From a virus, in IMG/VR virus record IMGVR_UViG_3300006155_000004: a stretch of 64,000 nt of DNA; one strand, 5' to 3'. The position numbers and the translations under genes are program-made. The notes beneath the pieces were generated by a model. It was not told the origin of the DNA. It worked only from the letters and a program-made list of their open reading frames with translations, and ran no database searches. This document shows positions 15,214 through 32,503 of the stretch, one piece after another (positions within the stretch are counted from its first letter, which is position 1; each line of letters opens with the position of its first letter).

Positions 15214-15454
15214 AATCAAAGAAACCATAACCGCCGTGTCTGCCGGGAATGAACCGGGAGCGGTCAGGATCAAGAGAGAAGAACAAGAACGGATGCCAGA
15301 ATGGTATTTTGCTACGGCTATGAAATGCGCTGTTGTAATCGCCGCGATAGCTGCCGCAACTGCAATTATCATATTTGCAGACTTATGGAAAGTTCTTGCT
15401 TTGATTGTAGCTGGGATTTTTTATACTTTGATTTACTTTGCGTTGCAGAATTAG
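15206..15454 (+). CDS. small membrane protein
   Basis: Two TM segments (AVVIAAIAAATAIIIF, LALIVAGIFYTLIYF); the G of its TAG stop is the first G of a G9 tract. Confidence 0.5.
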   Translation: MSKIKETITAVSAGNEPGAVRIKREEQERMPEWYFATAMKCAVVIAAIAAATAIIIFADLWKVLALIVAGIFYTLIYFALQN

Positions 15455-15462
15455 GGGGGGGG
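15454..15462 (+). repeat. orphan G9 homopolymer
   Basis: ttaGGGGGGGGGtg; directly abuts stop codon; in-frame GTG at 15462 and ATG at 15498 downstream. Confidence 0.9.
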
Positions 15463-15497: not shown

Positions 15498-15632
15498 ATG
15501 AAATGGAGAAAAGAGCAGATTAAGAATATGGTGTATGGGATGAACGCAAACTGTTGCGTCATAAACATGATATACGGATTTGCCAGAAAATGTTTTGAGA
15601 TATCCAGAGAAAAGGCAAAAGAAAAATTATAA
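15498..15632 (+). CDS. hypothetical small protein (44 aa; may start at GTG 15462)
   Basis: Same frame open from 15438 through the G tract; weak SD for ATG. Confidence 0.35.
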   Translation: MKWRKEQIKNMVYGMNANCCVINMIYGFARKCFEISREKAKEKL

Positions 15633-16579: not shown

Positions 16580-16744
16580 TTATTTAGTTTTCTGCTCGTT
16601 TAATTCAGATAATTTGTCATAGACATTTTGCATAAATTTTGCCACGTCTTTTCTGTTTTGGTCATTTGCTGCATGTGGCCAGCTTTGCGGTTTTGCGACG
16701 GTAATGTCCTTGACATATTCGAGCAATACAGAATTATCAATCAC
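16580..16744 (-). CDS. hypothetical small protein (54 aa), minus strand
   Basis: GTG start behind AAAGGAGGTGATACC on minus strand; ends TAA at 16580. Confidence 0.45.
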   Translation of the reverse strand: MIDNSVLLEYVKDITVAKPQSWPHAANDQNRKDVAKFMQNVYDKLSELNEQKTK

Positions 16745-16841
16745 GGTATCACCTCCTTTGGGAGAATTATACCACAAACAACAGGTAAGCACCCAATCTA
16801 TGGGTGCTATTTTTATTATGCTTTGTAAAGGCGGTGAAGGC

Positions 16842-19800
16842 ATGGCAGAAATAGATTCCCTTGAGATTCAAATAACAGCGAGCAGCAGAGCGGCGGCAAC
16901 GGCAATAGATGCGCTCAACAGAAAGCTTGGGACGCTTGCAAACTCCCTTAATTTTGATGCGCCTGGTCTGGAAAAACTGGATAAAATCCACGGAGACAAC
17001 ATAAAAAACCTTGGAACAGGTCTAAACGCACTCGGAAAAGGACTGCAAAGCATACAGTCCATCCGAAGGATAGATTTCGGAAAAATTGCAACCGATGTGC
17101 GAAGGCTGTCAAACATCCAGTCCGGGAATCTCCAAACACTCGGAAACGCTATGCGCCCGCTTGCAGATGGAATCAATGCGCTGTCAAAAGCAAAGGTTGA
17201 CAATTCCAACCTTACCAATCTGATAAACAGCCTTACAAGACTGTCAAATGCGAACCTAAGCAACCTTAACGGGGCAAACTTCACGCAGCTTGGAACTTCC
17301 ATAAAGGATTTTGCAAATGCCGTATCGGGCGCAAACAAGGTGGAGCAATCCACAATCGCTATGACAAACGCGGTTGCAAAGCTGGCAGCAGCCGGAAAAA
17401 ACATAGGAAAAGTCACCGGAGCATTGCCGCACCTTGCAAACAGCCTGAAAGCCTTTATGAACACCATGCATGAAGCGCCGCAGGTAGCAAATGAGACAAT
17501 CACATTTGCACAGGCAATCGGGACACTGGCAAGTGCAGGGGACAAAACCAAGGCAACCGCAAGCAATTTAAAACAGCTTGGTACGGAACTGAAAAACTTT
17601 ATGCAGACCATGTCCGCGGCACCGAATGTCAGCGACAGTGTTATCAGAATGACAACCGCACTTTCTGGACTTGTTAATCAGGGCGGGAGGGTGACGCTTT
17701 CGTCAAACTCCCTAAGCAGCAGCTTTAGCCGGGTATCTGGAATGTCTGGAAGGCTCAGGACAAACTTTCGGAATCTGACAGGCTCCATGTCCGGTCTGAG
17801 CGGAGCGACCTCAAAAACGGCGTCCAGCCTTAAAGGATTTTTACGGCAGCTCATGTCAGCAACCGGTGTGTATTTCAGCATATACGGCGCAATCCGGGGA
17901 CTGAAATCTGCAATCGATATTTCGTCCGACCTGACAGAAGTACAGAACGTTGTGGACGTGGCGTTTGGAGATATGGCATACAAAGTCGAGGAATTTGCAA
18001 AGGTTTCCGTAAAAGATTTTGGAATGTCGGAACTTACCACAAAAGAAATAGCCGGACGGTTCCAGGCAATGTCAACCGCAATCGGTGTAAGTGCAGATAA
18101 AATCGGACAGGCAAACACGTTTTTAAGCGGGCAGACAAAAGGATATGTTGCGGTTTCCGATTCGATGGCAGACGTTTCTATTAACCTGACGAAGTTAGCC
18201 GCTGATATGGCATCGTTTTACAACGTCGAACAGACCGACGTAGCCAAAAGCCTTGAATCCATATTCACGGGAACCACGGCCCCGCTGCGAAAATATGGTC
18301 TTGACCTGACACAGGCAACTCTTTCCGAGTGGGCATTGAAACAGGGACTTGACGCTGATATAAGTTCCATGTCTCAGGCCGAAAAGACCATGCTGCGGTA
18401 TCAGTATGTCCTGTCAAATACAAAAGCAGCACAGGGCGACTTCGCGCGTACAGCAGACTCGTGGGCTAATCAAACACGTGTTCTGGCACAGCAGTTTGAA
18501 ATACTGGCTTCTGTAATCGGCGGCGTTTTTATTAACGCTTTTAAGCCGGTTGTCAAGACACTAAATGCCGTTATGGCAAAAGTAATATCATTTGCAAAAA
18601 CCGTAGCAGACGCACTTGGCACAATTTTCGGCTGGACATTTGAGGTAAATCCAGGCGGAATAACAAATGATTTTGGCGACATGTCATCTGGTATCGAAGA
18701 TGTTGCAGACAGTGCAGGAGATGCGGCAGATAAAGTAAAAGACACGACAGACGAAGTAAAAGACCTGAAAGCGAATTTGCAGGGAATTGATAAGCTACAT
18801 GTCATAAGCCTTGATAAAGACAAAGACAAAGGAAAGGACAAGGGAACCGGAAAAGACAAGGACAAGGGAGACGGAATTGGCGGAATAGGCGGCTTAGATA
18901 CAAACCTGTTTGAAACCAAGAGTGTATTGAAAAAATATAAAAGCAGCATTGACACACTGTACAAACTGGGAGAGTACATAGGAAAAACTCTGACAAAAGC
19001 ATTAAACAGCATAAACTGGGATAAAGTATACGCTGCGGCAGACAATTTCGGGATTGGTCTGGCGCAGTTTTTAAATGGGCTGATTTCGCCAGAACTGTTT
19101 GCTGCGGTTGGTCGGACGATAGCCGGGGCGTTGAATACCGCACTCCATGTGCTTGACAATTTCGGAGCAACTTTTGACTGGAAAAATCTTGGAGATTCGC
19201 TTTCTGCTGGACTGGTTGCGTTCTTGAAAGGCATTGACTGGGAAACCGCGCTGTCCGCTGCTGCAAACTGGGGAACCGGAATTGCGACGACTCTGAATAG
19301 TTTTATATCTCCAGAATCATTCGGGCTTGTCGGAGAATCAATAGCAAAGGCTTTAAACACAGCGGTGCAATTCGCGCTTAGTTTCGGACAAGAATTTGAC
19401 TGGACAAATTTTGGAGAATCTCTTGCTACGGGAGTAAACGAATTCTTTAGAAACTTTAATTTTGAAAATCTGGCAGAGGCAATTAACGTGTGGGCAAAAG
19501 GAATTCTTGACACCATGATAACATTTCTGGACAAAACAGAATGGTACATGATTGGAGAAAGAATTGGAACATTTCTTGCGGAATTAGACTTTGCAGAAAT
19601 AGGAGGGAAAATCGGGCAAGCAATATGGAAAGCTATAAACGCGGGGATAGAGCTGTTTAAGGGGATGTTTTCCAAAGCACCGATAGAAGCGGCAATAATA
19701 GCCGCTTTTGCAGCACTAAAATTAACGGGAGCAGGCTCGATTATAGCAGGAGGGATAGCAAAGGCGCTATCTTCCACGAAAGCAAAAATATCCACAGCAA

Positions 19801-22800
19801 TAACAAAAGTGTTAAAAACAGCACTGTTGAAACCTATATCAAAATTTTTTACGGCAACCCTGATTCCGTCTATTACGGGACTTTTTTCAACGGTCGGAAG
19901 TGCATTTGGACTTTCTGGAAGTGCGGCGGTAGCGGCAGGTGGAGGAGTCGTTGTTGCCGGAATCGTCACGGCTGTTGCGACGATAAAAGACCTCTGGGGC
20001 ACGTCCGAAATTTTCAGAAAATCTGTATTGGATGCCTTCGATAAAATAAAGAAAAGCGTTTCTGATGCTTTTGAAAAAGTATCGGGAGCGGTAAAACCTC
20101 TGATTGATGCATTTGGAGAACTTGGAAAAGCACTTTCAGACTTTTATCAGAAAGGCCCTTTAAAACCGATAGTTGAGCTGCTTGCAAGCCTTGCCGTAAC
20201 GCTGGGTGGTGCAGTAATATCAACAGCGATAGACGTTATATCTGATGCGTTTTCCGCCCTTGCAAACGTTCTGACGGGGGCTGTTGAAGTTATAACAGGC
20301 GTCTTGGAGGCACTTAACGGAATTATTCATCTTGATTTTGACATGGCAATAAGCGGAGCCGCAAAAGCCGCGAAAGGAATACTTGATGCGTTTTCTGGAA
20401 TTTTAGGAGGAATAATAAACGCCGGAGTTGATATTGTAAAAGGTCTGCTGAAAGGAATTTTAAGTGGATTTTCCAATATTGGCAGCTGGCTTAAAAAGAA
20501 TATATTTGACCCGTTTATTAATGCGTTCAAGAATATTTTCGGAATCCATTCTCCATCAACAGTAATGGCAGAACAAGGCAGATTTTTAATACAAGGCCTG
20601 CTAAATGGAATATCCGGCATGATTGGCAAAGTTACCAAGCTGTTTGCAGATATAAAAAACAGTATCGCAAGAGTATGGGGCGAAGCAAAAAAGAACACAA
20701 CCGAAGCGTGGAACACAATATCAAACAAAGTCAGCGAAACGTGGGGAAACATGAAGTCCTGGGCGTCGGAAAAGTTTTCTGCTATAAAAAATTCGGTTAC
20801 GGGCGCATGGGACAAGGCAAAAGAAAAAACCGTAAGCGCATGGACAACAATATCAAATAAGATAAGCGAAACCTGGAACAACATAAAGTCTTGGGCGTCG
20901 GAAAAGTTCAATGCGGCAAAGAAATCCATAAGCGATGCATGGGAAAGCGCGAAGTCCAAGACAACAAGCACGTGGAGCACGATTTCTTCAAAGTTGAGCA
21001 GTACATGGAACAACATAAAAACATGGGCATCTGATAAGTTTTCAAGTGCAAAAAATTCAATAGTAAATGCATGGAATACCGCAAAAACAAAGACACAGAG
21101 TACATGGGACACAATCAAAAACAAAATATCGAGCGTCTGGAAAAACATAAAGTCAACCATATCGGGGGCGCTGACCGGAGAAGGAGGCATAGCAGGAAAA
21201 CTGTCATCCGCATGGTCGAACATCAAAAGCACGGCATCAAAAATGTGGAAACAGATTGCTGACAGCATCTTAAGCCCGATTAAAAAAGCAATAGACGGTG
21301 TGAAAAATGGGATTAACTGGGTTCTGGAAAAGGTCGGGGCTAAAAAGAGCGTGATTAAAGGAAGCCCGAAATATGCTAAAGGCTCCAATGGAATCCCAGA
21401 AGACACGTTTGGCATAGTCAACGACCAGAAAGGCTCCACATACCGCGAACTAATCGTACCGCCGCACGGAAAGCCGTTCATCCCAAAAGGACGAAACGTC
21501 ATGCTTCCGCTTGAAAAAGGAACAAAAATCATGCCCGCAATGGAAACCAAGCGTTTTATTGGCGGGCTTCCTCATTTTGAGGGCGGAATAGGCGATTTTA
21601 TCGGCGGCGCATGGGAGAAAGTAAAAAACTTTACTGGACAGATATGGGATTATATTTCAGAGCCGAAAAAGATTGTCCAGATTGCCATAGATAAATTCAC
21701 GAGCATGACGGGCATTTTGGAACCTATGCTATCAATCGCAAAAGGGGCAGTAAGCACGATCGCGGACGGAGCGACCAGTTTTGTCAAGAAAATATTTGAC
21801 GAAGAACTAAAGGTTGACTACAAAGTCGGCGCAGGCGTGCAGCAATGGGCTGGACTTGCAGCAAAAGCCTTGCAGATAACAGGACAGTATTCAGCCGCCA
21901 ACCTCTCCTATCTTTTGCAGCAGATGCAACATGAGTCAAGTGGAAATCCGATGTCCATAAACCTATGGGATTCAAATGCAAAAAAGGGAACTCCATCCAA
22001 GGGATTGATGCAGGTGATTGACCCCACATTCCAGTCTTACGCAAAACCTCCATATAACAAGAACATTTATGATCCGTTATCGAACATTATTGCTTCTATA
22101 AGGTATTCGTTGGCAAAATACGGAAGTCTTTATAACGCATGGGCCAAAAGAGGATTTATAGGATATGAGTCCGGAATTGGAAAAATAACCATATCGGATA
22201 TCATACCGGGATACGCAAACGGCGGGTTCCCAGAATCCGGGCAACTATTTATGGCAAGGGAAAACGGATCGCCGGAAATGGTAGGAAAAATCGGGAGCCG
22301 GACGGTGGTGGCAAACAACGAACAGATTACGGACGCGGTGGCAAAGGCAATTGCGGAAAAGATGAATGAAACAACGGACGAATTTGGAAAGATCATGAAC
22401 CAACTTTTGAAAAAGATGGAAAAAATCTTTCTATCCGCGTCCGAACAAAAAGGTGTTGACCGAAAGTCTTTATACTTTGTGGCAGACAGACTTATTGCCA
22501 ACATCAAAGATTCCTTTTCTTCGATAACAAATGAGTTTTTAAAAACCGGAACAATTTCTGACAACGAAGTACAATCGTTACTAGAAAAAACCGCGCAAAT
22601 AATAGAAAAAGGCAGGCAAGACAACCAAGAAAACGCCGACGCGCTGAGTTTGATATACAAAAGCATATCATCAAATTCGGTGGATGCATTTAACGCTATG
22701 AATGAAGCTGCAAGCGCATATAGAAAATATGCAGAAAGCGCGAAAAAAGAAACAAAAAGAAAAGAAGAAATAGATATAGAAATAAATACAGACGTAAAAG

Positions 22801-23717
22801 AAGAAAGTGTTTACGATGCGGCAAAAAGCGTCATGGATGGAATGCGAGACGGAATGGATAAATATGTTTCAGAAATGGAACAATGGGTAAATTCTGTTAG
22901 AGAATCAACGCAAGAATGGTTTTCGATGGTTGGAGATGGAATTTATGTTTATGGGCAGGAGGCTTCTGACGGATATGGAGATGGGATATATGACGGATAT
23001 GAAGATGTGGTAAATTCGGCGGAATCAGTTGCAAGCGGAGCAGAAAGTGCGTTTTCTGGAACAGAAGAGGAGGTTCAAATAGATGGCGTGAATATTGTTT
23101 CTGGACTTCAAAGTGGAATGGAAGAAAGGTGGGGAGAGCTTTTAGAATGGATCGCTGAAAAAAAAGAAGAATTAACGCTAAGTCTTTCGGAATTAGAAGA
23201 AGCAATGATGCCGGTTGGCGAGGGGATTATCAACGGACTGGCGCATGGCATGGAATCGATGTGGTATTCCGTAGAAGAGTGGGCAAAGAAAATAGAAGAT
23301 ACATTTTCTTCTGCCAAAAGCACGGAAAAGAATATGGAATACTTGCAAAGTGTAGCAACAAAAATTGCAGATAGCGCAGAAATTACAGGAAAAGATAAAA
23401 CGGGATCTTTGGATAAACAAAAGTACAAAATAGCGGACCTTACACAAATTACAAAAAATAATAGCGTCGGGAAAGTCGTAGATCTTCGTGAGTACAACAA
23501 GAAAACAAATTATTCTGGAACAGACGTAAAAAACCAGAACGCAAGGGACATGTCTGTGAGCATGATTACAGCAATAAACCAGGCAATTGTGCCTGCGCTA
23601 CAAAAGATAGGAAATACGACCGTTGAATTAAAAGGGGATGCAAAAGGGTTGTTTGATGCGGTAGTAAAAGAAAACAGCAAATATAAAACGATAACCGGAG
23701 CATCCGCAATGCGGTAA
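16842..23717 (+). CDS. tail tape measure protein with internal lytic transglycosylase (SLT) domain
   Basis: 2291 aa from ATG 16842; helical A/L/N-rich N-part; DKDKGKDKGTGKDKDKGDGIGGIGG linker; five roughly 40-aa W-rich repeats (about 20.65-21.2 kb); QHESSGNP...GLMQV SLT motif at about 21.9 kb. Confidence 0.9.
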   Translation: MAEIDSLEIQITASSRAAATAIDALNRKLGTLANSLNFDAPGLEKLDKIHGDNIKNLGTGLNALGKGLQSIQSIRRIDFGKIATDVRRLSNIQSGNLQTLGNAMRPLADGINALSKAKVDNSNLTNLINSLTRLSNANLSNLNGANFTQLGTSIKDFANAVSGANKVEQSTIAMTNAVAKLAAAGKNIGKVTGALPHLANSLKAFMNTMHEAPQVANETITFAQAIGTLASAGDKTKATASNLKQLGTELKNFMQTMSAAPNVSDSVIRMTTALSGLVNQGGRVTLSSNSLSSSFSRVSGMSGRLRTNFRNLTGSMSGLSGATSKTASSLKGFLRQLMSATGVYFSIYGAIRGLKSAIDISSDLTEVQNVVDVAFGDMAYKVEEFAKVSVKDFGMSELTTKEIAGRFQAMSTAIGVSADKIGQANTFLSGQTKGYVAVSDSMADVSINLTKLAADMASFYNVEQTDVAKSLESIFTGTTAPLRKYGLDLTQATLSEWALKQGLDADISSMSQAEKTMLRYQYVLSNTKAAQGDFARTADSWANQTRVLAQQFEILASVIGGVFINAFKPVVKTLNAVMAKVISFAKTVADALGTIFGWTFEVNPGGITNDFGDMSSGIEDVADSAGDAADKVKDTTDEVKDLKANLQGIDKLHVISLDKDKDKGKDKGTGKDKDKGDGIGGIGGLDTNLFETKSVLKKYKSSIDTLYKLGEYIGKTLTKALNSINWDKVYAAADNFGIGLAQFLNGLISPELFAAVGRTIAGALNTALHVLDNFGATFDWKNLGDSLSAGLVAFLKGIDWETALSAAANWGTGIATTLNSFISPESFGLVGESIAKALNTAVQFALSFGQEFDWTNFGESLATGVNEFFRNFNFENLAEAINVWAKGILDTMITFLDKTEWYMIGERIGTFLAELDFAEIGGKIGQAIWKAINAGIELFKGMFSKAPIEAAIIAAFAALKLTGAGSIIAGGIAKALSSTKAKISTAITKVLKTALLKPISKFFTATLIPSITGLFSTVGSAFGLSGSAAVAAGGGVVVAGIVTAVATIKDLWGTSEIFRKSVLDAFDKIKKSVSDAFEKVSGAVKPLIDAFGELGKALSDFYQKGPLKPIVELLASLAVTLGGAVISTAIDVISDAFSALANVLTGAVEVITGVLEALNGIIHLDFDMAISGAAKAAKGILDAFSGILGGIINAGVDIVKGLLKGILSGFSNIGSWLKKNIFDPFINAFKNIFGIHSPSTVMAEQGRFLIQGLLNGISGMIGKVTKLFADIKNSIARVWGEAKKNTTEAWNTISNKVSETWGNMKSWASEKFSAIKNSVTGAWDKAKEKTVSAWTTISNKISETWNNIKSWASEKFNAAKKSISDAWESAKSKTTSTWSTISSKLSSTWNNIKTWASDKFSSAKNSIVNAWNTAKTKTQSTWDTIKNKISSVWKNIKSTISGALTGEGGIAGKLSSAWSNIKSTASKMWKQIADSILSPIKKAIDGVKNGINWVLEKVGAKKSVIKGSPKYAKGSNGIPEDTFGIVNDQKGSTYRELIVPPHGKPFIPKGRNVMLPLEKGTKIMPAMETKRFIGGLPHFEGGIGDFIGGAWEKVKNFTGQIWDYISEPKKIVQIAIDKFTSMTGILEPMLSIAKGAVSTIADGATSFVKKIFDEELKVDYKVGAGVQQWAGLAAKALQITGQYSAANLSYLLQQMQHESSGNPMSINLWDSNAKKGTPSKGLMQVIDPTFQSYAKPPYNKNIYDPLSNIIASIRYSLAKYGSLYNAWAKRGFIGYESGIGKITISDIIPGYANGGFPESGQLFMARENGSPEMVGKIGSRTVVANNEQITDAVAKAIAEKMNETTDEFGKIMNQLLKKMEKIFLSASEQKGVDRKSLYFVADRLIANIKDSFSSITNEFLKTGTISDNEVQSLLEKTAQIIEKGRQDNQENADALSLIYKSISSNSVDAFNAMNEAASAYRKYAESAKKETKRKEEIDIEINTDVKEESVYDAAKSVMDGMRDGMDKYVSEMEQWVNSVRESTQEWFSMVGDGIYVYGQEASDGYGDGIYDGYEDVVNSAESVASGAESAFSGTEEEVQIDGVNIVSGLQSGMEERWGELLEWIAEKKEELTLSLSELEEAMMPVGEGIINGLAHGMESMWYSVEEWAKKIEDTFSSAKSTEKNMEYLQSVATKIADSAEITGKDKTGSLDKQKYKIADLTQITKNNSVGKVVDLREYNKKTNYSGTDVKNQNARDMSVSMITAINQAIVPALQKIGNTTVELKGDAKGLFDAVVKENSKYKTITGASAMR

Positions 23718-23723
23718 AAAGGG

Positions 23724-24137
23724 GTGATGCGATTGCCGGGAAAATACAAAGGCTGGGACATTAAAATGCCGAAAGGCATTGTCCCAGCCAAATTTATTAT
23801 GGGATTCAAAGAAACACCTGACGCTCTTATGGATTTAGACCCACGACGGACAGGGGAGGGACTTTTGATTAGAAATGTGCTTCCTTATGTGGCAACCACA
23901 ATAGATATAACGTTTGTCCCAATGTCCATGTCGGAAAAAATGGAGCTGCAAGAATATTTTCCGCCGTCTGTATATGTAAAAGCTCCGGTAACATACTGGA
24001 ACGAAAAGCACAACGATTATTTTACAGGAGATTTTTATATACCGGAAATACCGTGGGAAAGATATGTGGACTGCTATAACGAACCTATCTACATAGCTAC
24101 TCCAATACAGCTCATAGGGTATGGTGAAAAACGATGA
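23724..24137 (+). CDS. distal tail protein-like (by position)
   Basis: 137 aa directly after TMP, overlaps next gene. Confidence 0.4.
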   Translation: MMRLPGKYKGWDIKMPKGIVPAKFIMGFKETPDALMDLDPRRTGEGLLIRNVLPYVATTIDITFVPMSMSEKMELQEYFPPSVYVKAPVTYWNEKHNDYFTGDFYIPEIPWERYVDCYNEPIYIATPIQLIGYGEKR

Positions 24138-26587
24138 TTAATGTAAGCGATAAAGTCAGGGAACTGTACAAGACGGACAGAGTCCCGATACGCAAAGAGC
24201 CGATCACAAAAAAACTGTATATCAGGATTCTGGAAACCGGAACCGTCATAAGCGACGCGGACATGGAACTGGAAAACTTTACGCTTGAGGAAAGTATATG
24301 TAGCGCAGGCGAAATAGTTTTCGGTTCCTGTGAAGCGTCGTTCGTTTCGTTCGCTGTATACCAGACAGTCGAGGATTTGTCCAGTAAGACCGTCCGTATC
24401 TGGCAGACTATAAACGGAAATGAGGTTCCGTTTGGAACATACAAGGTTGCAACAGTGACAAAACGGGACGGCGACCCAAGGTGGAAAGACATAACCGCCT
24501 ACGACAGAATGCCCGAACTTGACCGGGACGCTACGGCGTGGTTTACGGATTTCTGGAACAGGCATACGGTATCTACGATAAAAGAGTTCCGGCTGTCGTT
24601 TTTTGGGTTTATGGGGTTCGATATAGTGGAACAGACGCTTATAAACGACCACATGGAGATTAAAAAGACCATAGACCCGGAATTTATAAAGGCAAGATAC
24701 ATTGCCCAGAAGATCGGCGAGATCAATGCGAGTTTCGGTCATTTTACAAGAGAGAATAAATTTAAGTACATTGATATAGGATCTCTTGCTCTATATCCAG
24801 CGGAAGACCTGTACCCGTCAGAAGATTTATTCCCGTCTGAGTCAACCGAAATTTTGTCCGGGGATTCTGCTATGCTGTATTTTGCGGACGAGAGCCATTA
24901 CGAAGATTACTATGTGCGAGCGATAGATAGCGTGCAGATTAAGGATTCTGATGGGAGCGCGGGAATTATAGTTGGAGAGGAAAATAAAAACCCTTACATT
25001 ATACACAGCAATTTCTTTGCATTTGGAAAAAGCGAACAGGAATTAAGGAATATTGCGAAAACATTTCTTTGGTCAGTTAAACGAAAGTTTTATATACCAA
25101 ACACGACAAGCATGATCGGCCTGCCTTATTTAGAGGTTGGGGATTCTGTAACTATCATGTTAGAACAAGACGCAATAGAGTCGTTTATATTTCAGAGACG
25201 AATGACTGGGATACATGCATTAAAAGATGAAATCACGGCAAAGGGAAACGAATATAGGAAAAACGATATAGACGACGGCGCGGAACTGATGCAGCTAAAA
25301 TCCAAGATGGACAATGTAGTGGCAGACACAGATCAAAAACTGGAAGATCTTTCGGATGATATGGATGGCAAACTGGAAGATCTGTCTGATGATGTGGACG
25401 GAAAAATAGGAGATGTAAATGTAAAAATAGGAGATTTGAAAATTTCTTTGCAACAAACCAACGAGGGACTTTCTGCAGAAATTACAAGAGCAAAGGGAGA
25501 AGAAGCAAAACTAAGCAGCCAAATCATTATGACTGTAAACGAAATCAAACTTGCAGTCAGCGAGACATATCAGACGAAGTCGGATGCAAGCAGCCAATAT
25601 GCGCACCTTGAATCCTCCATACAACTGACAGCCCAGGACATTACATCTACGGTCAGCGCAACATATGAAACTAAGAGCGCTGCAAGCGCAAGCTACGCAA
25701 ACCTGTCTTCTCAGATTGTACAGACAGCAAACAGTATTACATCTACGGTCAGCGCAACATATGAGACAAAAAGCAATGCAGGAAGTTATTATCAGAGTTT
25801 TCAGTCGCAGATAACACAGACAGCCGACCAGATCAGCACAAAGGTTTCTGCTGGAGATGTGCAAAGTTTGATTGAGCAAAATGCAGATTCAATAAGGCTT
25901 AAGGCGGGGAAAATTGTTGTAGACTCCACTTATTTTAAGGTGGACATGTACGGGAACATAGATGCAAAAAGCGGGAAAATTGCTGGATTTACCATAGACA
26001 ATGGCGGATTTTCGTCTCCAAATGGAAGCACAACAATATACCACAACATAGTATATACGAGTGAATTAAGGCCGGGGAGTGGGATTAGTGATTTTATTAT
26101 AGGAAATTACGGAACCTTAACCAGCATATACGGAAGCAATGTAAAACTGACCGGGAATGTATACATGCCAACGGTATATTCAAATAACACGACAGCAGAT
26201 CCAAACATGCACATAACAAGCACAGGATACTTAAATACAAAGGGTGGATCTTCCAGAAAATGGAAACACGGAATAGGGGAAATAAAATCAGAAGAGATAC
26301 ATCATCACAAAATATATAAAACTCGAACATGTGAGTTTATATATAATGATGATTATATATCTATTCAGGATTGCCGAAGAGGGAAGAAAATACCAGGGTT
26401 CGTAATTGAAGATCTTGAAGAAGACTATCCGATAGCGGTTGATTATGATGAAAACGGAAATCTTTCCACATGGTCGCCTAGCATGTTCATTGCTCCGTTT
26501 GTAGAACTTCATAAAGAGCATCATGCAGATATAGAAGAAATAAAAAATATATTAAATAAAATTATCAAAAAAATAGGAGGTGTTTAA
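24134..26587 (+). CDS. tail-associated baseplate/tail-tip protein with coiled-coil repeats and C-terminal S74-type intramolecular chaperone domain
   Basis: 817 aa; repeats TSTVSATYETKS(A/N)A; LEDLSDD(M/V)DGK x2; C-terminus GGSSRKWKHGIGEI...IPGFVIEDLEEDYPIAV resembles endosialidase chaperone domain. Confidence 0.65.
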   Translation: MINVSDKVRELYKTDRVPIRKEPITKKLYIRILETGTVISDADMELENFTLEESICSAGEIVFGSCEASFVSFAVYQTVEDLSSKTVRIWQTINGNEVPFGTYKVATVTKRDGDPRWKDITAYDRMPELDRDATAWFTDFWNRHTVSTIKEFRLSFFGFMGFDIVEQTLINDHMEIKKTIDPEFIKARYIAQKIGEINASFGHFTRENKFKYIDIGSLALYPAEDLYPSEDLFPSESTEILSGDSAMLYFADESHYEDYYVRAIDSVQIKDSDGSAGIIVGEENKNPYIIHSNFFAFGKSEQELRNIAKTFLWSVKRKFYIPNTTSMIGLPYLEVGDSVTIMLEQDAIESFIFQRRMTGIHALKDEITAKGNEYRKNDIDDGAELMQLKSKMDNVVADTDQKLEDLSDDMDGKLEDLSDDVDGKIGDVNVKIGDLKISLQQTNEGLSAEITRAKGEEAKLSSQIIMTVNEIKLAVSETYQTKSDASSQYAHLESSIQLTAQDITSTVSATYETKSAASASYANLSSQIVQTANSITSTVSATYETKSNAGSYYQSFQSQITQTADQISTKVSAGDVQSLIEQNADSIRLKAGKIVVDSTYFKVDMYGNIDAKSGKIAGFTIDNGGFSSPNGSTTIYHNIVYTSELRPGSGISDFIIGNYGTLTSIYGSNVKLTGNVYMPTVYSNNTTADPNMHITSTGYLNTKGGSSRKWKHGIGEIKSEEIHHHKIYKTRTCEFIYNDDYISIQDCRRGKKIPGFVIEDLEEDYPIAVDYDENGNLSTWSPSMFIAPFVELHKEHHADIEEIKNILNKIIKKIGGV

Positions 26588-26589
26588 AT

Positions 26590-26883
26590 ATGCTAGATAA
26601 TGTTGTTATTTCAATTAACGTGTCTGCAAAATCTATTAGAAAAAACGAATCCGGAGAGCGGGAAGAGTGCGCAAGGTTCGGATCAAGCATAGCGATAGAT
26701 GGGAGTTGGAACACGAACAAGTCTGTCAATCCGGAAGCGTATCAATCAAATAAGGAAGAAACTAGATCTGATTTTGCGAAGTTTGAAGAAAGCGTGGAGG
26801 AGTTTTCGGGGGATATTTTCCCGGCACTAAACTCATTGGTGGAAAAATTCAAAAAAGAGCTTGAACGGGAAATTGCCAAATAG
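26590..26883 (+). CDS. hypothetical tail-module protein
   Basis: 97 aa behind ATAGGAGG. Confidence 0.45.
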   Translation: MLDNVVISINVSAKSIRKNESGEREECARFGSSIAIDGSWNTNKSVNPEAYQSNKEETRSDFAKFEESVEEFSGDIFPALNSLVEKFKKELEREIAK

Positions 26884-26899
26884 ATAGGAGTTGGTTTTT

Positions 26900-28009
26900 A
26901 TGGACAAGGCTTACACAAGGATACATTGGGAAAATAGCCCAAGCACAAAAACGGCTCTTGGAGCAATGAACCTGAATCGAACGGACTATGCTATAGACGA
27001 GATTGACAACCGGGTTATGCGTCACGACAACGAAAAGGCGGACAAAACCGAAATCCTGAACCTTGTCAACGGCTGGACAATGGACGAACAGACCGGAATC
27101 ATAACGGTCACGAAAGTCAATGGGGAAAGATTGATATTCGACCTGAATATCGAGAAAATACCAGTCAACTTTGAACTGTCTCCAGAGGGAATCCTAACCA
27201 TGACAACCGCTGATGGAACACGGTTTACGGCAAATATCGGCGCGATGATTCCGATGCTTGAGTTTGAAAGCACCGATACGATTGCAGTTTCTGTAACGGG
27301 AGAGGGGGTCAACAAGACATATTCCTTTTTCGTAAAAGACGGGAGCATAACAGAGGATAAGCTGCAGCCGAACTTTCTTGCGGATGTTACTGTACAGGCG
27401 GAAAACGCGTCCGCAGCAGCAACGGCGGCGGCAGATTCGGCAAGGGCAGCAAAAGATTCTGAAACCAATGCGGCACGGTCGGCGGCAGATGCAGCAGCGT
27501 CTGCACTGGCGGCACAGGAGTCAAAGGTTGCGGCGGCAGAATCAGAAGCAGCAGCAAAGCGTTCCGAAGAAGCATCGGAAGTTTCACAACAGGCGGCAGC
27601 GGCGTCGGAAGTGGCGGCAAAGGAATCGGAAGAAGCCGCAAAACTGTCCGAAACCAATGCAGCAGAGTCCGAAACCAATGCGGCGGCATCCGAACGAACG
27701 GCACTGGAAAAAGCGGAAGAAGCGTCGGACAGCGCAGACCTGTCAAAGTCCTATGCGGTCGGAGGAACTGGAACGAGACCCGGGGAAGACACAGATAACT
27801 CGGAGTATTACAGCAATCAATCGAAAGAGTATTTAAATAAGGTAGAAACTGCTGGCGAAAACGCCCTTGAAACGATTAAAAACGCTTTAAAAGCAGCAAA
27901 ACCGGAATTTGTGACAAACGTACAGAACGGCCACCTTTATTACAAGGGCGGGCGTTTTTTCTTTCTGGTTGATGAAAACGGGCATTTGAGATGGAGGGTG
28001 ATGATTTGA
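26900..28009 (+). CDS. tail fibre/baseplate upper-type protein with alanine-rich heptad shaft
   Basis: N-terminus IHWENSPSTKTALGAMNLNRTDYAIDEIDNR; 110-aa A/E/S repeat (AAESEAAAKRSEEASEVSQQAAAASE...). Confidence 0.6.
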   Translation: MDKAYTRIHWENSPSTKTALGAMNLNRTDYAIDEIDNRVMRHDNEKADKTEILNLVNGWTMDEQTGIITVTKVNGERLIFDLNIEKIPVNFELSPEGILTMTTADGTRFTANIGAMIPMLEFESTDTIAVSVTGEGVNKTYSFFVKDGSITEDKLQPNFLADVTVQAENASAAATAAADSARAAKDSETNAARSAADAAASALAAQESKVAAAESEAAAKRSEEASEVSQQAAAASEVAAKESEEAAKLSETNAAESETNAAASERTALEKAEEASDSADLSKSYAVGGTGTRPGEDTDNSEYYSNQSKEYLNKVETAGENALETIKNALKAAKPEFVTNVQNGHLYYKGGRFFFLVDENGHLRWRVMI

Positions 28010-29541
28010 ACGAGGAAAAAATGGATGAGCTGCTTCGTCTGATGCGGGCCATTGTTCCTGACACGTCCGATATGAGTGACGCCGGAAAAGTTGGGTTTGT
28101 ATATAAATTTGATTATGACCCGGCAGCGCCTTATGAAAAGCTTGATGTAGTTAAATACGGAATGTCCTTATGGACGCCAAAAACGGACACGATCGGGAAC
28201 CCGCCGCCCGATCAGTCACAATACGGTCAAGAAGATGCGCAAGAGAATGATTTTTGGGTTTTGTTCCTACCTGGCGCCCTTGGAAGCGAATATGTTAAAA
28301 AGACCGATATATCCGCCCCTCCTACCGAAACCGAATCAGGAAAGCCCGGGGTAAATTATCCGGACGGCAAGACAATTACAATTGACGAAAACGGGATGCT
28401 TACGGGGGCGCCTACAGGCAGGTCGCTTACAAAAGAAGAAATGAACACACAGCTTTCAGATGGAACGTTGGAAGACGGGAGCGCAGTGTACCTTTCCGGT
28501 AATGAGCAGGACGGCGACCGCGGGAATATGGTGGGGCTTATCATAGACGGGCAGTTTGTCCCGTATGGTATGGTAGGACTGCGCGACGGGGTTCCGGTAT
28601 ACCTGTTCAACACCTATGAGGAATACGAAGCGGCAAAGCCTAACCTGGTAGACCCATGCGTGTTCATTACGCTTGACGACCTTGATACGGGCGGCTGGAC
28701 GTTTGATGATGCGCTTGATCCGGAGTCTGAGAATGCGGTGCAGAACAAGGCTTTGTATGCTTATATAAGTGGGATCATGACAATGGAAGATCCTATATCA
28801 TTTAATGGAGGCGCCGGATATCACAATTCGATTTTTCGAGGAAAATATCTTGGTGATACACTGACGCAAGAGCAGGTAGCAGAAATTGAAGCTGGAACAT
28901 TCAAGGATATGTTTGTTGGTGACTACTGGACAATCGGTGGGGTGAATTACCGCATTGCCCATCTTGATTACTGGCTGCGGTGCGGGGATGCAGAATGCAC
29001 GAAGCACCATGCCGTCATAGTTCCTGACACCTGCCTGTATAATGCACAGATGCATAACACTGCATCCGGGCAGTATGAGGGCGGAGCAGCCAACACAACA
29101 GAGGGCGGCTATATCGGTTCTGATATGTATAAAACGGGGCTTAACCAGGCAAAAACTATAATCAATAACGCTTTCGGCTCGGCGCATATATTGTCACACA
29201 GGGAACTGTTGGTAAATGCCGTCACAAATGGCAGGCCGAGCAACAATGTATGGTATGACAGCACCGTGGAATTAATGAATGAGCCTATGGTATACGGCAG
29301 CTATATTTTTACTCCGGCGCATGATGGCACGGTGATTTCATACCGTTACACCATTGACAAGTCACAGTTGGCGTTATTCGCATTGCGCCCGGATTTAATC
29401 TGTAACCGTGTGGGCTGGTGGTTGCGTGACGTTGTTTCGGGCGCTCATTTTGCCAATGTGTACTGGCACGGCCATGCGGACTGCTACTACGCTTCCAACG
29501 CTTTTGGCGTGCGCCCGGCTTTCGGGGTTTGCGGATCTTGA
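27991..29541 (+). CDS. tail fibre / receptor-binding protein
   Basis: 516 aa; SENAVQNKALY collar motif; C-terminus WWLRDVVSGAHF...AFGVRPAFGV (DUF6273-like, memory); start may be ATG 28021. Confidence 0.55.
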   Translation: MEGDDLNEEKMDELLRLMRAIVPDTSDMSDAGKVGFVYKFDYDPAAPYEKLDVVKYGMSLWTPKTDTIGNPPPDQSQYGQEDAQENDFWVLFLPGALGSEYVKKTDISAPPTETESGKPGVNYPDGKTITIDENGMLTGAPTGRSLTKEEMNTQLSDGTLEDGSAVYLSGNEQDGDRGNMVGLIIDGQFVPYGMVGLRDGVPVYLFNTYEEYEAAKPNLVDPCVFITLDDLDTGGWTFDDALDPESENAVQNKALYAYISGIMTMEDPISFNGGAGYHNSIFRGKYLGDTLTQEQVAEIEAGTFKDMFVGDYWTIGGVNYRIAHLDYWLRCGDAECTKHHAVIVPDTCLYNAQMHNTASGQYEGGAANTTEGGYIGSDMYKTGLNQAKTIINNAFGSAHILSHRELLVNAVTNGRPSNNVWYDSTVELMNEPMVYGSYIFTPAHDGTVISYRYTIDKSQLALFALRPDLICNRVGWWLRDVVSGAHFANVYWHGHADCYYASNAFGVRPAFGVCGS

Positions 29542-29630
29542 AAATATGAAGCATTTGGATATTTACTATAAATATTAAAATAAATTTTTTCGATATAGTC
29601 AAGTATCGCTTGATATAGGATAGGAGGCAT

Positions 29631-30137
29631 ATGAGCATTTCAATACTAGAAAATGGCACACGGCACAAAATCCAAACTTGGTCTTTGCCGGACGAAAAAA
29701 TAGATAAAAACAGCAAAAATGCTGTTTCGAATAATGCAGTAGCGAAAGCGCTAGAACAGATGAAAGACGGAGTCGCGGAACAGGCCGAGTCTTTGGATGC
29801 TAAAATTCGGGCCAATTCACATAATGTGTCTGAGATTAGCAAGCTTATACAAAAGTTTACGCGATATGATGGCAGGACGGATATGTATGTAGGCGACCTG
29901 GATGATTTAAGGGAAAACAGCATCTACAACTGCAATGAAAGCACGCTGCATGCACCAAAAAAGTTCACAAACTGGTTTTTTGTTGTTACTTTTGTCCACA
30001 CACCAAATAATGATTATGTTGCTCAGGTTGCGATACACATGAATGGCCCGGGCGGAAGCACGCCAATCGCAATCCGGAACTGTGGCAGCGGAGTTTGGGG
30101 AAGATGGCGTTATATAGCAGTGCAAGAGGAGGAGTAA
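29631..30137 (+). CDS. fibre-tip protein, tract-less paralogue (cassette 0), knob-like C-domain
   Basis: MSISILENGTRHKI leader-like N-terminus; NSKNAVSNNAVAKAL motif; C-domain GDLDDLRENSIYNC...VWGRWRYI parallels cassette 2 (DLNDYLSPGNYYC...WTAWKKI). Confidence 0.6.
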   Translation: MSISILENGTRHKIQTWSLPDEKIDKNSKNAVSNNAVAKALEQMKDGVAEQAESLDAKIRANSHNVSEISKLIQKFTRYDGRTDMYVGDLDDLRENSIYNCNESTLHAPKKFTNWFFVVTFVHTPNNDYVAQVAIHMNGPGGSTPIAIRNCGSGVWGRWRYIAVQEEE

Positions 30138-30139
30138 CA

Positions 30140-30650
30140 ATGGGAATATACATGCAAAATAACAATGTAGTTCATCGGCTGGACGGAAATGGCGGGGGGG
30201 GGCATTCTTGAAAGAATAGAAAAAATTGAAGAAAAAATAAAGCAAATGAATTTTGAAATGTCCGAAAAACTTCCTATTAATATGGTAACAAATAGAACAG
30301 ATATAACGGAAGCTGGGTATGCAGCAGACGCACGGCAGTTGAATCCGGCGCTGCCAGAAACACTTTCCGCAAAATTGCAAGATATTTTAAAATACCCACG
30401 GATCCGGAAGATTGTCGAAATTGCAGCCGCTTCCGGAAAGCCATTAGATTCAGGAAGTTATATATCAGTAAATGTAGATTTAACGCCATATGGATTTCTA
30501 AAGAAGCCATATGCGTTCTTAAAGCATACAACGTGGCTTGCGGTTCATTCCATCATCGTAACAAATGTGAATGCACATGTTACGCTTACAAATCCATACA
30601 ATGATGCACATGACGATTCGGCATCGTTTATATTGATAGAATTTTTATGA
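30140..30650 (+). CDS. fibre-tip cassette 1, start and body in different frames across G9 (in frame at G8/G11)
   Basis: SD GAGGAGGAG, ATG 30140 MGIYMQNNNVVHRLDGNGGGG then stop 30209; body frame ...GGGILERIEKIEEK...DITEAGYAADARQLN... to 30650. Confidence 0.7.
30194..30202 (+). repeat. G9 homopolymer, cassette 1
   Basis: ggcGGGGGGGGGcat. Confidence 0.9.
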
Positions 30651-30662
30651 AAGGGGATAACA

Positions 30663-31209
30663 ATGGGGTTATACATACACCAAAACAACACCGCAACCCC
30701 GATCGGGGGGGGGCGTAAGCAAAATAATATTAGACCGAATAACGGCATTAGAATCAGGCCTTGAAACGGTAAACCATGCATTGTCTTTAAAACTTGACTT
30801 GGACAAGGTAACACAAAGCGATTCCATAACAGAACGTGGCTATGCGGTTGATGCAAGAGAATTAAACGCTTCGCTTAGCGGAACGGTTGCGAATAAAACG
30901 GAAAGAATTAATGAATCTCTTTCCGGATGCAGCAGGCTTTTTGGGGGCCAGATGATAAACAGAGGATCGGATTTAAATGATTATTTAAGTCCTGGAAATT
31001 ATTATTGCAGTTCGAATGCGATCGCAGGAACGTTGAAAAACTCTCCTATAGTCGATGCATTTACAATGAAAGTGGAATTTGCTACAGGTGTGGCATATCC
31101 ATGTCAAACCTTGCGGGATTTTATTATCGGAACATTGTATTACAGGGTTTTTAATCCTTTTAAAAACCAGTGGACGGCATGGAAAAAAATAGATCTGGTT
31201 CCGATTTAG
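30663..31209 (+). CDS. fibre-tip cassette 2 (knob-like C-domain), out of frame across G9 (in frame at G8/G11)
   Basis: ATG 30663 MGLYIHQNNTATPIGGG then stop 30762; +1 frame GVSKIILDRITALESGLETVNHALSLKLDLDKVTQSDSITERGYAVDARELN... to 31209. Confidence 0.7.
30705..30713 (+). repeat. G9 homopolymer, cassette 2
   Basis: atcGGGGGGGGGcgt. Confidence 0.9.
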
Positions 31210-31227
31210 AACAGAAAGAGAGGAAAA

Positions 31228-31790
31228 ATGGGATTATATGTAAAAAATAACGGATCAGAAAAGAAAATCGGGGGGGGGCAGGACAGGCCGTACTAAACCG
31301 CATTGCGGCGCTGGAATCGGGGCTTGAAAGCGTAAGGCGGTCCCTGGCAGGCAAGCTGGATTTAAATAATGTGACACAGGGAACATCTATAACGGAGGCC
31401 GGATGGGCCGCGGATGCGCGGCAGATGAACTCTGCTTATCCAGGCAGCATCGCAGAAAAGGTGGAAGGGAATGCCGGCAGGATATCGGCACTTTCATTCC
31501 GGTTTGCATTAAAGGCTGAAGTGGCAGGGAATGGGGAGACAACGGATATAACACTGCCGTCATACGGCGTGTATATCCTGATTTCGCATCATGGCGGCGT
31601 ATGGACGACACTGGAGGGGATGGCATATATTTCCTGCAGCCCGTACCAGGATGCATATGTGGCTGAAAAAATATTTGGGCGTTATGACTTTGACGCTATG
31701 GAAATGTCTATAGACACAGGGACAAGGGTTTTATCGGTTAAAAACCATTGCGCATCCGGATCCAATATTTATTTATATCAAATACTATAG
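31228..31790 (+). CDS. fibre-tip cassette 3, out of frame across G9 (in frame at G10/G7)
   Basis: ATG 31228 MGLYVKNNGSEKKIGGG then stop 31294; -1 frame GGAGQAVLNRIAALESGLESVRRSLAGKLDLNNVTQGTSITEAGWAADARQMN... to 31790. Confidence 0.7.
31270..31278 (+). repeat. G9 homopolymer, cassette 3
   Basis: atcGGGGGGGGGcag. Confidence 0.9.
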
Positions 31791-31808
31791 ACGGAAAGGG
31801 GCGGCAAT

Positions 31809-31966
31809 ATGAATTTGTATATACAAAAAAACGGAAAGGCGGGCGAAATTGGGGGGGGGTAATAAAAACCCTTATAGACCGTATGGCGGCACTTGAGTCA
31901 GGTCTTGCAGGCCTTAAAACGGAACTGCAGGGCAGGCTGCTGGTTGTTGTATATAATTTTGTTTAG
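31809..31966 (+). pseudogene. fibre-tip cassette 4, truncated remnant that still carries leader and G9
   Basis: ATG 31809 MNLYIQKNGKAGEIGGG then TAA 31860; -1 frame GGVIKTLIDRMAALESGLAGLKTELQGRL then ends 31966, no C-domain. Confidence 0.6.
31851..31859 (+). repeat. G9 homopolymer, cassette 4
   Basis: attGGGGGGGGGtaa. Confidence 0.9.
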
Positions 31967-31982
31967 AAAGGAAAATAGGAAC

Positions 31983-32369
31983 ATGAAAGAATTTGTAACA
32001 GCTAACGAAAAGATTTATGAATGCAGCAATGTAACAACTGGCATAGATTCCATTACCATGACGATGGAAAACCAGAATGCAAACGACATGATCGCGGAGT
32101 TTGATGGAGTAACCGAACTTACCGTATCATTCGAAAAAAAGAAAGAAGAATGGGAAGAGGATCTGGGACTGGTTTTAGAAGACCCGCACGGGATATATAA
32201 AAACTTAAAATTGGAATCAGTAACCACGAACGTGAACGACGGATCGGTAAGCGTGACAATGCATATAAAAAGCGATATCGAAATGCGGCTGGACGCTTTG
32301 GAAACGGGGCAGGAATTGCAGGACGGCGCCATTATGGAACTGGCACAGAATGTGGGAGGTGGGTTATAA
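31983..32369 (+). CDS. XkdW-like tail-module protein (by position)
   Basis: 128 aa from ATG 31983; precedes XkdX-like mini gene and endolysin. Confidence 0.4.
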   Translation: MKEFVTANEKIYECSNVTTGIDSITMTMENQNANDMIAEFDGVTELTVSFEKKKEEWEEDLGLVLEDPHGIYKNLKLESVTTNVNDGSVSVTMHIKSDIEMRLDALETGQELQDGAIMELAQNVGGGL

Positions 32370-32503
32370 TGGTTAAATTTTTGATCAACCAGATCAAGGT
32401 CGGAAACATAAGCTTATTGGACGTGCCACCAATGTGGCGCGCTTCGGTTGAAGCTAAAATGGGTGAGGATTCTGAACGCAGAAAGGGAAACGAATGGGAA
32501 TAA
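32369..32503 (+). CDS. XkdX-like small protein (44 aa)
   Basis: TAATG overlap; MVKFLINQIKVGNISLLDVPPMWRASVEAKM pattern common before lysis genes in Firmicute phages (memory). Confidence 0.45.
   Translation: MVKFLINQIKVGNISLLDVPPMWRASVEAKMGEDSERRKGNEWE

Follow-up and report, generated by a model that had tools for sequence, protein, structure and literature searches.

A tandem array of putative short tail-fibre cassettes with nine-guanine tracts in an uncultured phage genome: a candidate phase-variable locus

Four cassettes and their polyG tracts

A stretch of 64,000 nucleotides (nt) of virus record IMGVR_UViG_3300006155_000004, referred to as the window, was analysed with respect to four tandem gene cassettes that each carry a run of nine guanines (G9) between a short leader and a body open in another reading frame. 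The window is phage throughout (capsid, tail, lysis, repressors, RecT, helicase), and the array is located between a siphovirus-type tail module and an Amidase_2 endolysin gene. Tract lengths are given as G7 to G11, related contigs as L numbers and database proteins as P numbers. The array consists of the following parts:

29631..30137, plus strand: orf168, a tract-less paralogue heading the array; leader-like N-terminus MSISILENGTRHKI; aligned with the cassettes
30140..30193, plus strand: leader of cassette 1, 18 codons, MGIYMQNNNVVHRLDGNG; preceded by GAGGAGGAG
30194..30202, plus strand: tract 1, G9, coding for a Gly hinge; in frame at G8/G11
30204..30650, plus strand: body of cassette 1, 148 codons, +1 frame; coiled coil, neck motif ITEAGYAADARQLN and head domain
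30663..30704, plus strand: leader of cassette 2, 14 codons, MGLYIHQNNTATPI
30705..30713, plus strand: tract 2, G9; in frame at G8/G11
30715..31209, plus strand: body of cassette 2, 164 codons, +1 frame; the head folds, in its model, like receptor-binding tail-fibre tips
31228..31269, plus strand: leader of cassette 3, 14 codons, MGLYVKNNGSEKKI
31270..31278, plus strand: tract 3, G9; in frame at G10/G7
31278..31790, plus strand: body of cassette 3, about 170 codons, -1 frame; 85% identical to P0001
31809..31850, plus strand: leader of cassette 4, 14 codons, MNLYIQKNGKAGEI
31851..31859, plus strand: tract 4, G9, followed by TAA TAA in the zero frame; in frame at G10/G7
31859..31966, plus strand: body remnant of cassette 4, 35 codons including the first, which starts with the last G of the tract; coiled coil only

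Runs of at least seven G occurred exactly five times in the window, and every one was a G9 tract on the plus strand (15454-15462, 30194-30202, 30705-30713, 31270-31278 and 31851-31859). No C run of at least seven was present anywhere in the 64 kb. From base composition, about 0.16 runs of nine or more G were expected in 64 kb versus the five observed, and the observed G-run count was reached by no dinucleotide shuffle. Four of the five tracts fall 14-18 codons into the cassettes, whose ATGs are located at 30140, 30663, 31228 and 31809. All four begin in codon phase 0, after 18, 14, 14 and 14 codons, respectively, and the zero frames are closed by stops at 30209, 30762, 31294 and 31860. Each leader ATG is preceded by a purine-rich, Shine-Dalgarno-like stretch, which on our reading is strong in cassette 1 and weaker in cassettes 2-4.

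Relative to the ATG, the body is shifted by +1 in cassettes 1 and 2, so that G8 or G11 restores the frame, and by -1 in cassettes 3 and 4, where G10 or G7 does so. At G9 none of the four window cassettes is in frame, and in each of them a change by one unit flips the frame of an open reading frame (ORF) near its 5' end, as is expected of a homopolymer contingency locus. The original prediction had described the frames of the four tracts in the same way. Its description was reproduced when the arithmetic of ATGs, tracts and stops was recomputed, although some ATGs lie one base lower than a quick reading gives. The rule that a tract length divisible by three is OFF for every cassette holds in the window and, in relatives, for 31 of 32 distinct cassettes; by the same frame arithmetic, a one-step slip in either direction turns on a different class of cassette.

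The frame rule applies to all four cassettes, but the earlier four-cassette picture needs amendment for cassette 4, which is a deletion remnant with only 34 body codons past the tract. It is cut off after the coiled coil (…ELQGRL, continued by LVVVYNFV and a stop), and its counterpart in L012 has an intact body of 160 codons. The truncated cassette still has a leader, a Shine-Dalgarno-like stretch and G9.

Encoded proteins and selection on leaders and bodies

When repaired in frame, cassettes 1-3 encode proteins of 169-187 amino acids (aa) that share one plan. The leader, with the consensus MGIYIQxNGxxxPI, is followed directly by GGG from the tract. After this hinge come an amphipathic helix of about 25 residues, the motif KLDxxKVTQSTxVTEAGYAADARQLN, of which VTQ..ITEAGYAADARQLN forms the conserved neck, and a C-terminal head of about 100 residues that is variable among cassettes. 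In an AlphaFold2 model of the full-length ON protein P0006, the leader forms a beta-hairpin that is followed by a long helix. The overall confidence of this model was low (predicted local distance difference test score, pLDDT, of 55); it was used for the N-terminal hairpin and helix only and was left out of the fold search. The hairpin is presumed to be a docking element.

The head of cassette 2 was modelled with pLDDT mostly above 90. In Foldseek it matched the C-termini of R2/R1 pyocin fibres (6ct8, 6cl6, 6cl5) with root-mean-square deviations of 1.4-2.0 Å over 84-93 columns and a probability of 1.00, and it also matched fibre or receptor-binding protein (RBP) chains of the staphylococcal phages phi812, P68 and 80alpha (including 9euf_5 and 6iab). 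A tblastn search of cassette 2 against isolate phages (INPHARED) gave distant matches only, with at most 33% identity. Several of these were annotated as tail fibre proteins, and the matched phages were exclusively those of Acinetobacter, Salmonella, Escherichia, Aeromonas, Clostridium and Eggerthella. An exhaustive HMMER search yielded 585 relatives of the cassette proteins, many of them longer fibre proteins in which a cassette-type neck and head stand behind other N-terminal adaptors.

None of the three full-length cassettes matched Pfam; PHROGs gave no match for cassettes 1 and 3 and weak matches only for cassette 2; and a PDB sequence-profile search returned only coiled-coil (GCN4) noise. 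Because of the fold matches, the tblastn matches and the kin fibres with the same neck and head, and given the position in the tail module, the cassette products are classified, from sequence and models, as short tail-fibre or receptor-binding proteins. They are presumably trimeric.

The tract-less orf168 is conserved at 91% in L001-L006, and N-termini of its leader-like 'MSISI...' type were also found in the in-frame family members P0036, P0055, P0057 and P0115. Judged by its sequence, orf168 is probably a constitutive fibre.

Between divergent copies, the cassette bodies are open over 145-195 codons, with ratios of nonsynonymous to synonymous substitution rates (dN/dS) of 0.16-0.59, including pairs in which both copies are OFF. 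For the window cassettes, dN/dS was 0.31 for the body of cassette 1 against L001, 0.40-0.59 for that of cassette 2 and 0.52 for that of cassette 3 against L012. Among 22 distinct 14-codon leaders read in the ATG frame, entropy was 0.97, 0.73 and 1.40 bits at codon positions 1, 2 and 3. Apart from the truncated cassette 4, the gated genes are thus kept by selection. These substitution patterns mark the cassettes as live genes with purifying selection on leaders and bodies, and since selection acts on both parts, leader-hinge-body fusions are evidently made.

The leader constraint bears on whether translation might simply begin at the tract, in which case the tract would gate nothing. Cassette 1 has an ATG at 30189 in the body frame that opens a 153-aa ORF (30189-30650), whose orthologue is called by gene callers as P0002, 'MAGGGILERIEK...', and many database products are called from tract starts ('MAGGG', 'MWGG', 'MGGG'). 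Gene finders, however, produce such starts for any frameshifted ORF. A start codon at the tract is present in some cassettes only and is missing from window cassettes 2-4, there is no clear Shine-Dalgarno sequence before 30189, unlike the leader ATGs, and a leader under peptide-level constraint must belong to a functional protein. The leaderless form that the original prediction had allowed for from ATG 30189 is conceivable, but with a leader peptide conserved across the family it is unlikely to be a working product, and leaderless translation as an account of the cassettes is highly improbable.

Related arrays and variation in tract length

Relatives were searched for by protein and DNA-pattern searches of Logan, ENA, JGI and IMG/VR assemblies, and leaders were checked by hand. 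About 32 distinct cassettes from other metagenomic phages share the leader-tract-body layout. They form tandem arrays of 3-9 paralogous cassettes, in a siphovirus-like setting in L001-L006 and behind P2-like baseplate genes (Baseplate_J, Tail_P2_I) in L007 and L012. The nearest relatives, L001-L003, are 91-96% identical to the window in shared blocks; the leader of the third L001 cassette starts with TTG. Contigs L010, L011 and L041-L044 are 100% identical to the window and hence represent no independent lineages. The JGI metagenome DNA-pattern search returned seven loci, of which L029 and L032 were new relatives and L027 was the L009 contig; L026, L028, L030 and L031 were discarded as unrelated G-rich sequences. 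No match was obtained by blastn of positions 29600-32400 against 50,697 phage records (INPHARED), and an IMG/VR search with cassette 2 found no related loci. With a 21-sequence profile, IMG/VR gave only five distant fibre genes, all without polyG.

A nine-cassette array was found directly downstream of a tyrosine integrase (phrog_1) in L014 (6427-13227) and also in L015-L019. In L014, eight of the nine tracts are G9 and one has decayed to G6, and all nine cassettes are out of frame; no tail genes were present in the 8 kb upstream. This array may represent the end of a prophage, a satellite or a reservoir of cassettes. Arrays of this size were all-OFF in several samples.

The in-frame length n of the 32 distinct cassettes is 2 mod 3 in 21 cases, 1 mod 3 in ten and 0 mod 3 in one, the second cassette of L025. 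Of 80 cassette observations, 62 are G9, a length that is OFF everywhere save in this cassette. Lengths nevertheless differ, and across the family G7, G8, G9, G10 and G11 alleles were seen, ON as well as OFF. One cassette is G8 (ON) in L012 and G9 (OFF) in L014 and L015; a second is G8 in L019 and L016 versus G9 in L014, L015, L017 and L018; a third is G9 (OFF) in L029 versus G11 (ON) in L032. A further pair of samples differs by G9 in L007 versus G10 in L008, and another by G7 (ON) in L033 versus G8 (OFF) in L034. L007 also contains near-identical paralogues at G8 and G11.

Within single arrays, three of four cassettes are ON in L007 (G8, G11, G11), one of three in L009 and one of six in L012. 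In-frame products are present in the protein database (P0006, P0007, P0034). P0022, P0025 and P0030 are in-frame versions of cassettes that are OFF elsewhere, for which back-translation implies G7, G7 and G8. The mixed populations anticipated by the original prediction are hence seen in relatives (L007, L009, L012) and not in this phage, with all four tracts at G9 throughout. The short-read contigs L016, L017, L029 and L044 end inside a polyG tract or at most 3 nt past it. Such ends would fit length heterogeneity within a sample but were not counted as evidence of it, as leaders common to co-occurring phages would break assembly graphs alike.

These comparisons leave next to no probability for the cassettes being decaying pseudogenes or for the G9 runs being sequencing or assembly artefacts. 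All four window cassettes are out of frame, cassette 4 is truncated, and homopolymers are error-prone in some technologies. Yet the same G9 consensus was obtained in independent assemblies (ENA, Logan, JGI, NCBI), the bodies are intact with dN/dS below 1, the leaders are conserved as peptides, and the architecture recurs in the roughly 32 cassettes of different phage types, some of them in frame, with the tract always at the hinge.

The fifth G9 tract of the window differs from the others in its position:

15454..15462, plus strand: intergenic G9 tract; its first G doubles as the third base of the TAG stop that closes the gene for an 82-aa membrane protein (15206-15454)

A 44-aa ORF (15498-15632) begins 35 nt downstream of this fifth tract, which also precedes a Rha-family gene and may be regulatory. 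Its length is G9 in the window, L036 and L039 and G8 in L037, L038 and L040. These alleles belong to the same phage and show 0 mismatches over 600 nt of flanks, so a G9 run in this genome is unstable in length at the DNA level.

Two further polyG tracts follow the lysis module in L001 (11440-11449 and 12076-12084) and in L002 and L003. The first lies inside a small ORF, measures G10, G10 and G11 and is in frame at G10. The second, with G9, G9 and G8, separates a divergent helix-turn-helix repressor gene from the first ORF that reads rightward. Such tracts suggest that control near the lysogeny switch is phase-variable in these three relatives.

Tracts also coincide with the ends of shared blocks. 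L014 matches window positions 30838-31280, comprising the C-terminus of cassette 2 and the leader of cassette 3 and ending 2 nt past tract 3, and L012 matches 31268-31938, beginning 2 nt before tract 3. Both blocks are 94-96% identical, and in L014 the cassette 3 leader is joined to a different body of the other frame class. Since the blocks end at tract 3 and the same leader stands on another body, leader plus tract appears to be a junction at which bodies are exchanged. Such exchange would offer a way for frame classes to change.

Considering gene order, frames and allele lengths together, the array is probably a set of alternative short tail-fibre genes, each gated by a hypermutable polyG contingency tract that is switched by slippage of DNA strands. 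Slipped-strand mispairing at DNA replication would change a tract by at least one G. Cassettes 1 and 2 would be ON at G8/G11 and cassette 3 at G10/G7, with cassette 4 obeying the same rule as a remnant. At G9, translation from each ATG would end 1-17 codons past the tract, and all cassettes would be OFF. The tract would code for a Gly-Gly-Gly hinge, and a change by three G would merely lengthen the linker; G8 and G11 are both found as ON alleles because they differ by one Gly in the hinge.

The sequenced population is all-OFF and presumably relies on orf168. An additional or alternative fibre would be displayed by the occasional descendant in which one cassette is ON, a form of host-range bet-hedging. 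With two frame classes per array, a +1 or -1 slip would turn on different cassettes, and independent switching would yield combinatorial fibre sets. ON and OFF alleles are heritable, and some have become fixed in a population.

Several observations weigh against simple DNA switching of this kind. Every assembly of the phage (ERR2497919, ERR2497921, JGI 3300006213, 3300006149 and 3300006151) has G9 at all four cassette tracts, so switching of the four window tracts was not directly observed; it is inferred here, as are its rate and its phenotypic effect. In sets of assemblies of the same phage, one of 15 cassette tracts was polymorphic versus three of three non-cassette tracts (Fisher p = 0.005, by our count), many of the samples coming from the same projects and therefore not being independent. 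This suggests that G9 is actively maintained at cassettes. That G9 is OFF in 31 of 32 distinct cassettes has P = 4e-5 if the classes are equiprobable, a significance that is overstated by kinship among cassettes; pure drift among OFF lengths does not predict it. OFF cassettes are found at G9 in preference to the other OFF length, which would be G10 in +1 cassettes and G8 in -1 cassettes. For '-1' cassettes, only G7 ON alleles were seen and none at G10.

In Campylobacter jejuni polyG loci, the modal length is nine by mutational bias, with G8 mostly gaining and G11 mostly losing units (PMC3401435). By analogy, such a bias can explain the dominance of G9. The data taken together suggest that G9 is favoured at cassettes either by selection against ON combined with mutational bias or as a functional slipping state.

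If the second applies, G9 would be a maintained recoding site. RNA polymerase would then slip so as to gain or lose one G in a minority of transcripts, maybe with some ribosomal slippage besides, which would give low-level, sub-stoichiometric expression of all cassettes and virions with mixed fibres; nine Gs are about the length of the RNA:DNA hybrid, and DNA alleles of other lengths would be secondary. The prevalence of G9 among the 80 observations and its out-of-frame position in nearly all cassettes of both the +1 and the -1 class fit this account, as do the all-OFF nine-cassette arrays and the cassette tracts that stay G9 in all assemblies while the intergenic G9 of the same genomes flips to G8. 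One genomic length serving both classes also suits two-way slippage.

Against a recoding site, in-frame DNA alleles (G7, G8, G11) reach consensus in several populations, with three cassettes ON together in L007; because they do, DNA length matters and varies. No slippage-promoting RNA hairpin flanks the tracts. Hybrids are more stable on G/C runs. The documented cases of slippage by bacterial RNA polymerase involve A/T runs (PMC6260861), and the G9 mode has the mutational explanation known from classical contingency loci (PMC3401435). We regard a recoding site as unlikely, while giving it more than passing weight.

Programmed ribosomal frameshifting alone on GGG GGG GGG, by -1 in cassettes 3 and 4 and by +1 in cassettes 1 and 2, is very improbable. 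tRNA-Gly can re-pair perfectly throughout the run in either direction, and the zero-frame stop of cassette 4 (TAA TAA) directly follows the tract. A stop codon in the A site is a classical stimulator of +1 frameshifting. Cassette 4, however, needs a -1 shift, and the same motif would have to support two opposite directions. A canonical X XXY YYZ heptamer with A or U at YYY is absent, the 3' context of the tract differs among cassettes, and the in-frame DNA alleles show that expression does not depend on frameshifting. No RNA structure was found flanking the tracts (z scores of -1.05 to +1.64, and of -1.05 to +0.82 downstream in the four window cassettes). The preference of the original prediction for slippage at the nucleic-acid level over ribosomal slippage is borne out by the need for both directions, by this absence of RNA structure at the tracts and by the heritable alleles of other lengths.

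The two kinds of slippage could also be combined. G9 would then be a selected length that is universally OFF but leaky: two-way slippage of RNA polymerase or ribosome would produce virions with mosaic fibres from single bursts, DNA slippage would occasionally lock one cassette ON, and leader plus tract would act as the crossover point for exchange of cassettes among phages. The nine-cassette array next to a tyrosine recombinase would then resemble an integron-like reservoir of receptor-binding modules. This composite is speculative and, as a whole, quite unlikely.

An inversion switch is not supported: no recombinase is encoded within 23.7-33.3 kb, and all cassettes are co-oriented. Inverted repeats at the array are short and imperfect only (at most 30 nt and at most 86% complementary; the longest, of 30 nt, is 70% complementary). 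For a diversity-generating retroelement, no near-identical repeat pair was found in 29-33 kb, and no reverse-transcriptase scan of the window was made.

Genomic setting and comparison with known systems

The tail module upstream of the array and the endolysin gene downstream of it contain the following features:

within 16704..29541 (tail module), plus strand: tape-measure-like ORF, 2337 aa, with an SLT domain in the L010 orthologue
23724..24137, plus strand: DUF6711 protein
24134..26587, plus strand: tail protein, 817 aa
26891..28009, plus strand: fibre-like protein, 372 aa
27991..29541, plus strand: DUF6273-like (fibre-like) protein, 516 aa
32494..33285, plus strand: Amidase_2 endolysin, end of the structural module

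The phages look temperate and carry repressor genes and toxin-antitoxin genes. A gene with a Spo0A_C domain and the Clostridium relatives hint at a Firmicutes host, as far as sequence can tell. GTDB species-representative genomes gave no match, either by profile or by the leader-plus-tract DNA pattern.

Elsewhere in the window, a DDE transposase ORF (46024-47505, minus strand) lies within the otherwise all-plus-strand replication and recombination module. The local GC content is 0.47 and the AT skew is near zero, and the ORF is probably part of an insertion sequence element inserted in the phage. Rha-family ORFs are located at 6515-7195 and 15727-16374, and a third ORF of 215 aa (37837-38484) sits where the identical contig L010 has a called Phage_pRha gene. 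Antirepressor-like genes (ORF6N/ORF6C and P22_AR_N) and a PemK toxin were called in the identical contigs L010 and L036. Within positions 1-90, at the very start of the window, 48 nt match perfectly when the sequence is offset against itself by 42 nt, corresponding to a tandem repeat with a 42-nt period.

Gene callers start P0015, P0017, P0019, P0021, P0029, P0037 and P0123 at a GTG or ATG that includes the first G of the tract ('MGGG…', 'MAGGG…'). The polyG cassette family is systematically mis-annotated, and because callers split or truncate the cassettes and thereby hide the leader and the frameshift, it is invisible in current databases.

Host range is the main limit on phage ecology and phage therapy. 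Known routes to multiple specificity include invertible fibre segments, diversity-generating retroelements, sets of fixed RBPs and, in Campylobacter phages, single RBP genes gated by polyG. The arrays would add a compact, modular alternative, in which 3-9 small fibre genes each have their own switch, placed in a hinge that tolerates changes of three bases. The layout recurs in siphovirus-like and P2-like myovirus contexts from several metagenomes, and uncultured temperate phages, probably infecting Firmicutes, would gain from it a combinatorial repertoire of host ranges that is both heritable and reversible.

Alternative modules are switched by site-specific inversion in the G segment of phage Mu (Gin), the C segment of P1 (Cin) and the shufflons of plasmid R64. 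With these the arrays share several alternative C-terminal receptor modules, a conserved N-terminal part and a stochastic genetic switch. They differ in that the switch is a frameshift, with no adjacent invertase or long flanking inverted repeats, and in that the states are not exclusive (0-3 cassettes ON).

In the G insertion of the paramyxovirus P/V gene and in transcriptional slippage in Thermus dnaX and in insertion sequence elements, the genomic tract is fixed and the RNA varies. There, too, a homopolymer opens other frames at the nucleic-acid level. In the arrays, by contrast, the genomic tract itself varies between populations, and the bacterial examples use A/T runs. The likening to the paramyxovirus P gene in the original prediction thus captures slippage of nucleic acid, whereas the evidence obtained is heritable polymorphism of DNA (G7, G8, G10 and G11 in assembled genomes).

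The mechanism class, polyG phase variation, is already known, phage RBP genes included. The polyG/C loci of C. jejuni (Bayliss et al. 2012, PMC3401435) resemble the cassettes in replication slippage, reversible frameshift, a modal length of nine and combinatorial diversity. In the arrays, however, the modal length is nearly always OFF, which is no reported feature of the C. jejuni loci (PMC3401435).

Among phages, T2 and T4 have been shown to possess contingency loci (Gomez, Barrick & Waters 2025, bioRxiv 10.1101/2025.10.21.683753). Homopolymer repeats are under-represented in the tail fibre genes of BASEL coliphages (bioRxiv 10.1101/2025.10.21.683753), whereas in the window they are concentrated in such genes (four of five tracts in 64 kb).

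The closest parallel in mechanism is the Campylobacter Fletchervirus, in which polyG tracts of 7-11 G in RBP genes split the phage into subpopulations that differ in host recognition (Sorensen et al. 2021, Cell Rep 35:109214, as cited in bioRxiv 10.1101/2025.10.21.683753). According to that citation, tract length shifts the frame there as well, and more polyG tracts are found elsewhere in the genome. There is no sequence relation to the arrays, as judged by the absence of a blastn match in the 50,697 records and of any Campylobacter phage among the tblastn matches. Compared with the features of Fletchervirus given there, the arrays have a fixed hinge 14-18 codons in, small genes (about 170-190 aa), 3-9 cassettes, two frame classes and an all-OFF default. 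The literature searched contained no description of tandem small-fibre arrays, a fixed hinge tract or an OFF length shared by two frame classes, nor of spread over unrelated tail architectures or cassette exchange at the tract.

With regard to the encoded protein, Clostridium phage CB452P1 (OP172752.1, coding sequence 16757-17290) has a 177-aa fibre with the same neck and head (33% identity, E = 2e-12). Its gene follows baseplate genes, as do the arrays in L007 and L012 behind Baseplate_J and Tail_P2_I. Unlike the cassettes, it is one constitutive gene with another N-terminal adaptor, without leader, polyG tract or array. The fold of the cassette head is shared with R-type pyocin fibres (6ct8, 6cl6, 6cl5) and with staphylococcal fibre and receptor-binding proteins (9euf, 6iab, 6v8i).

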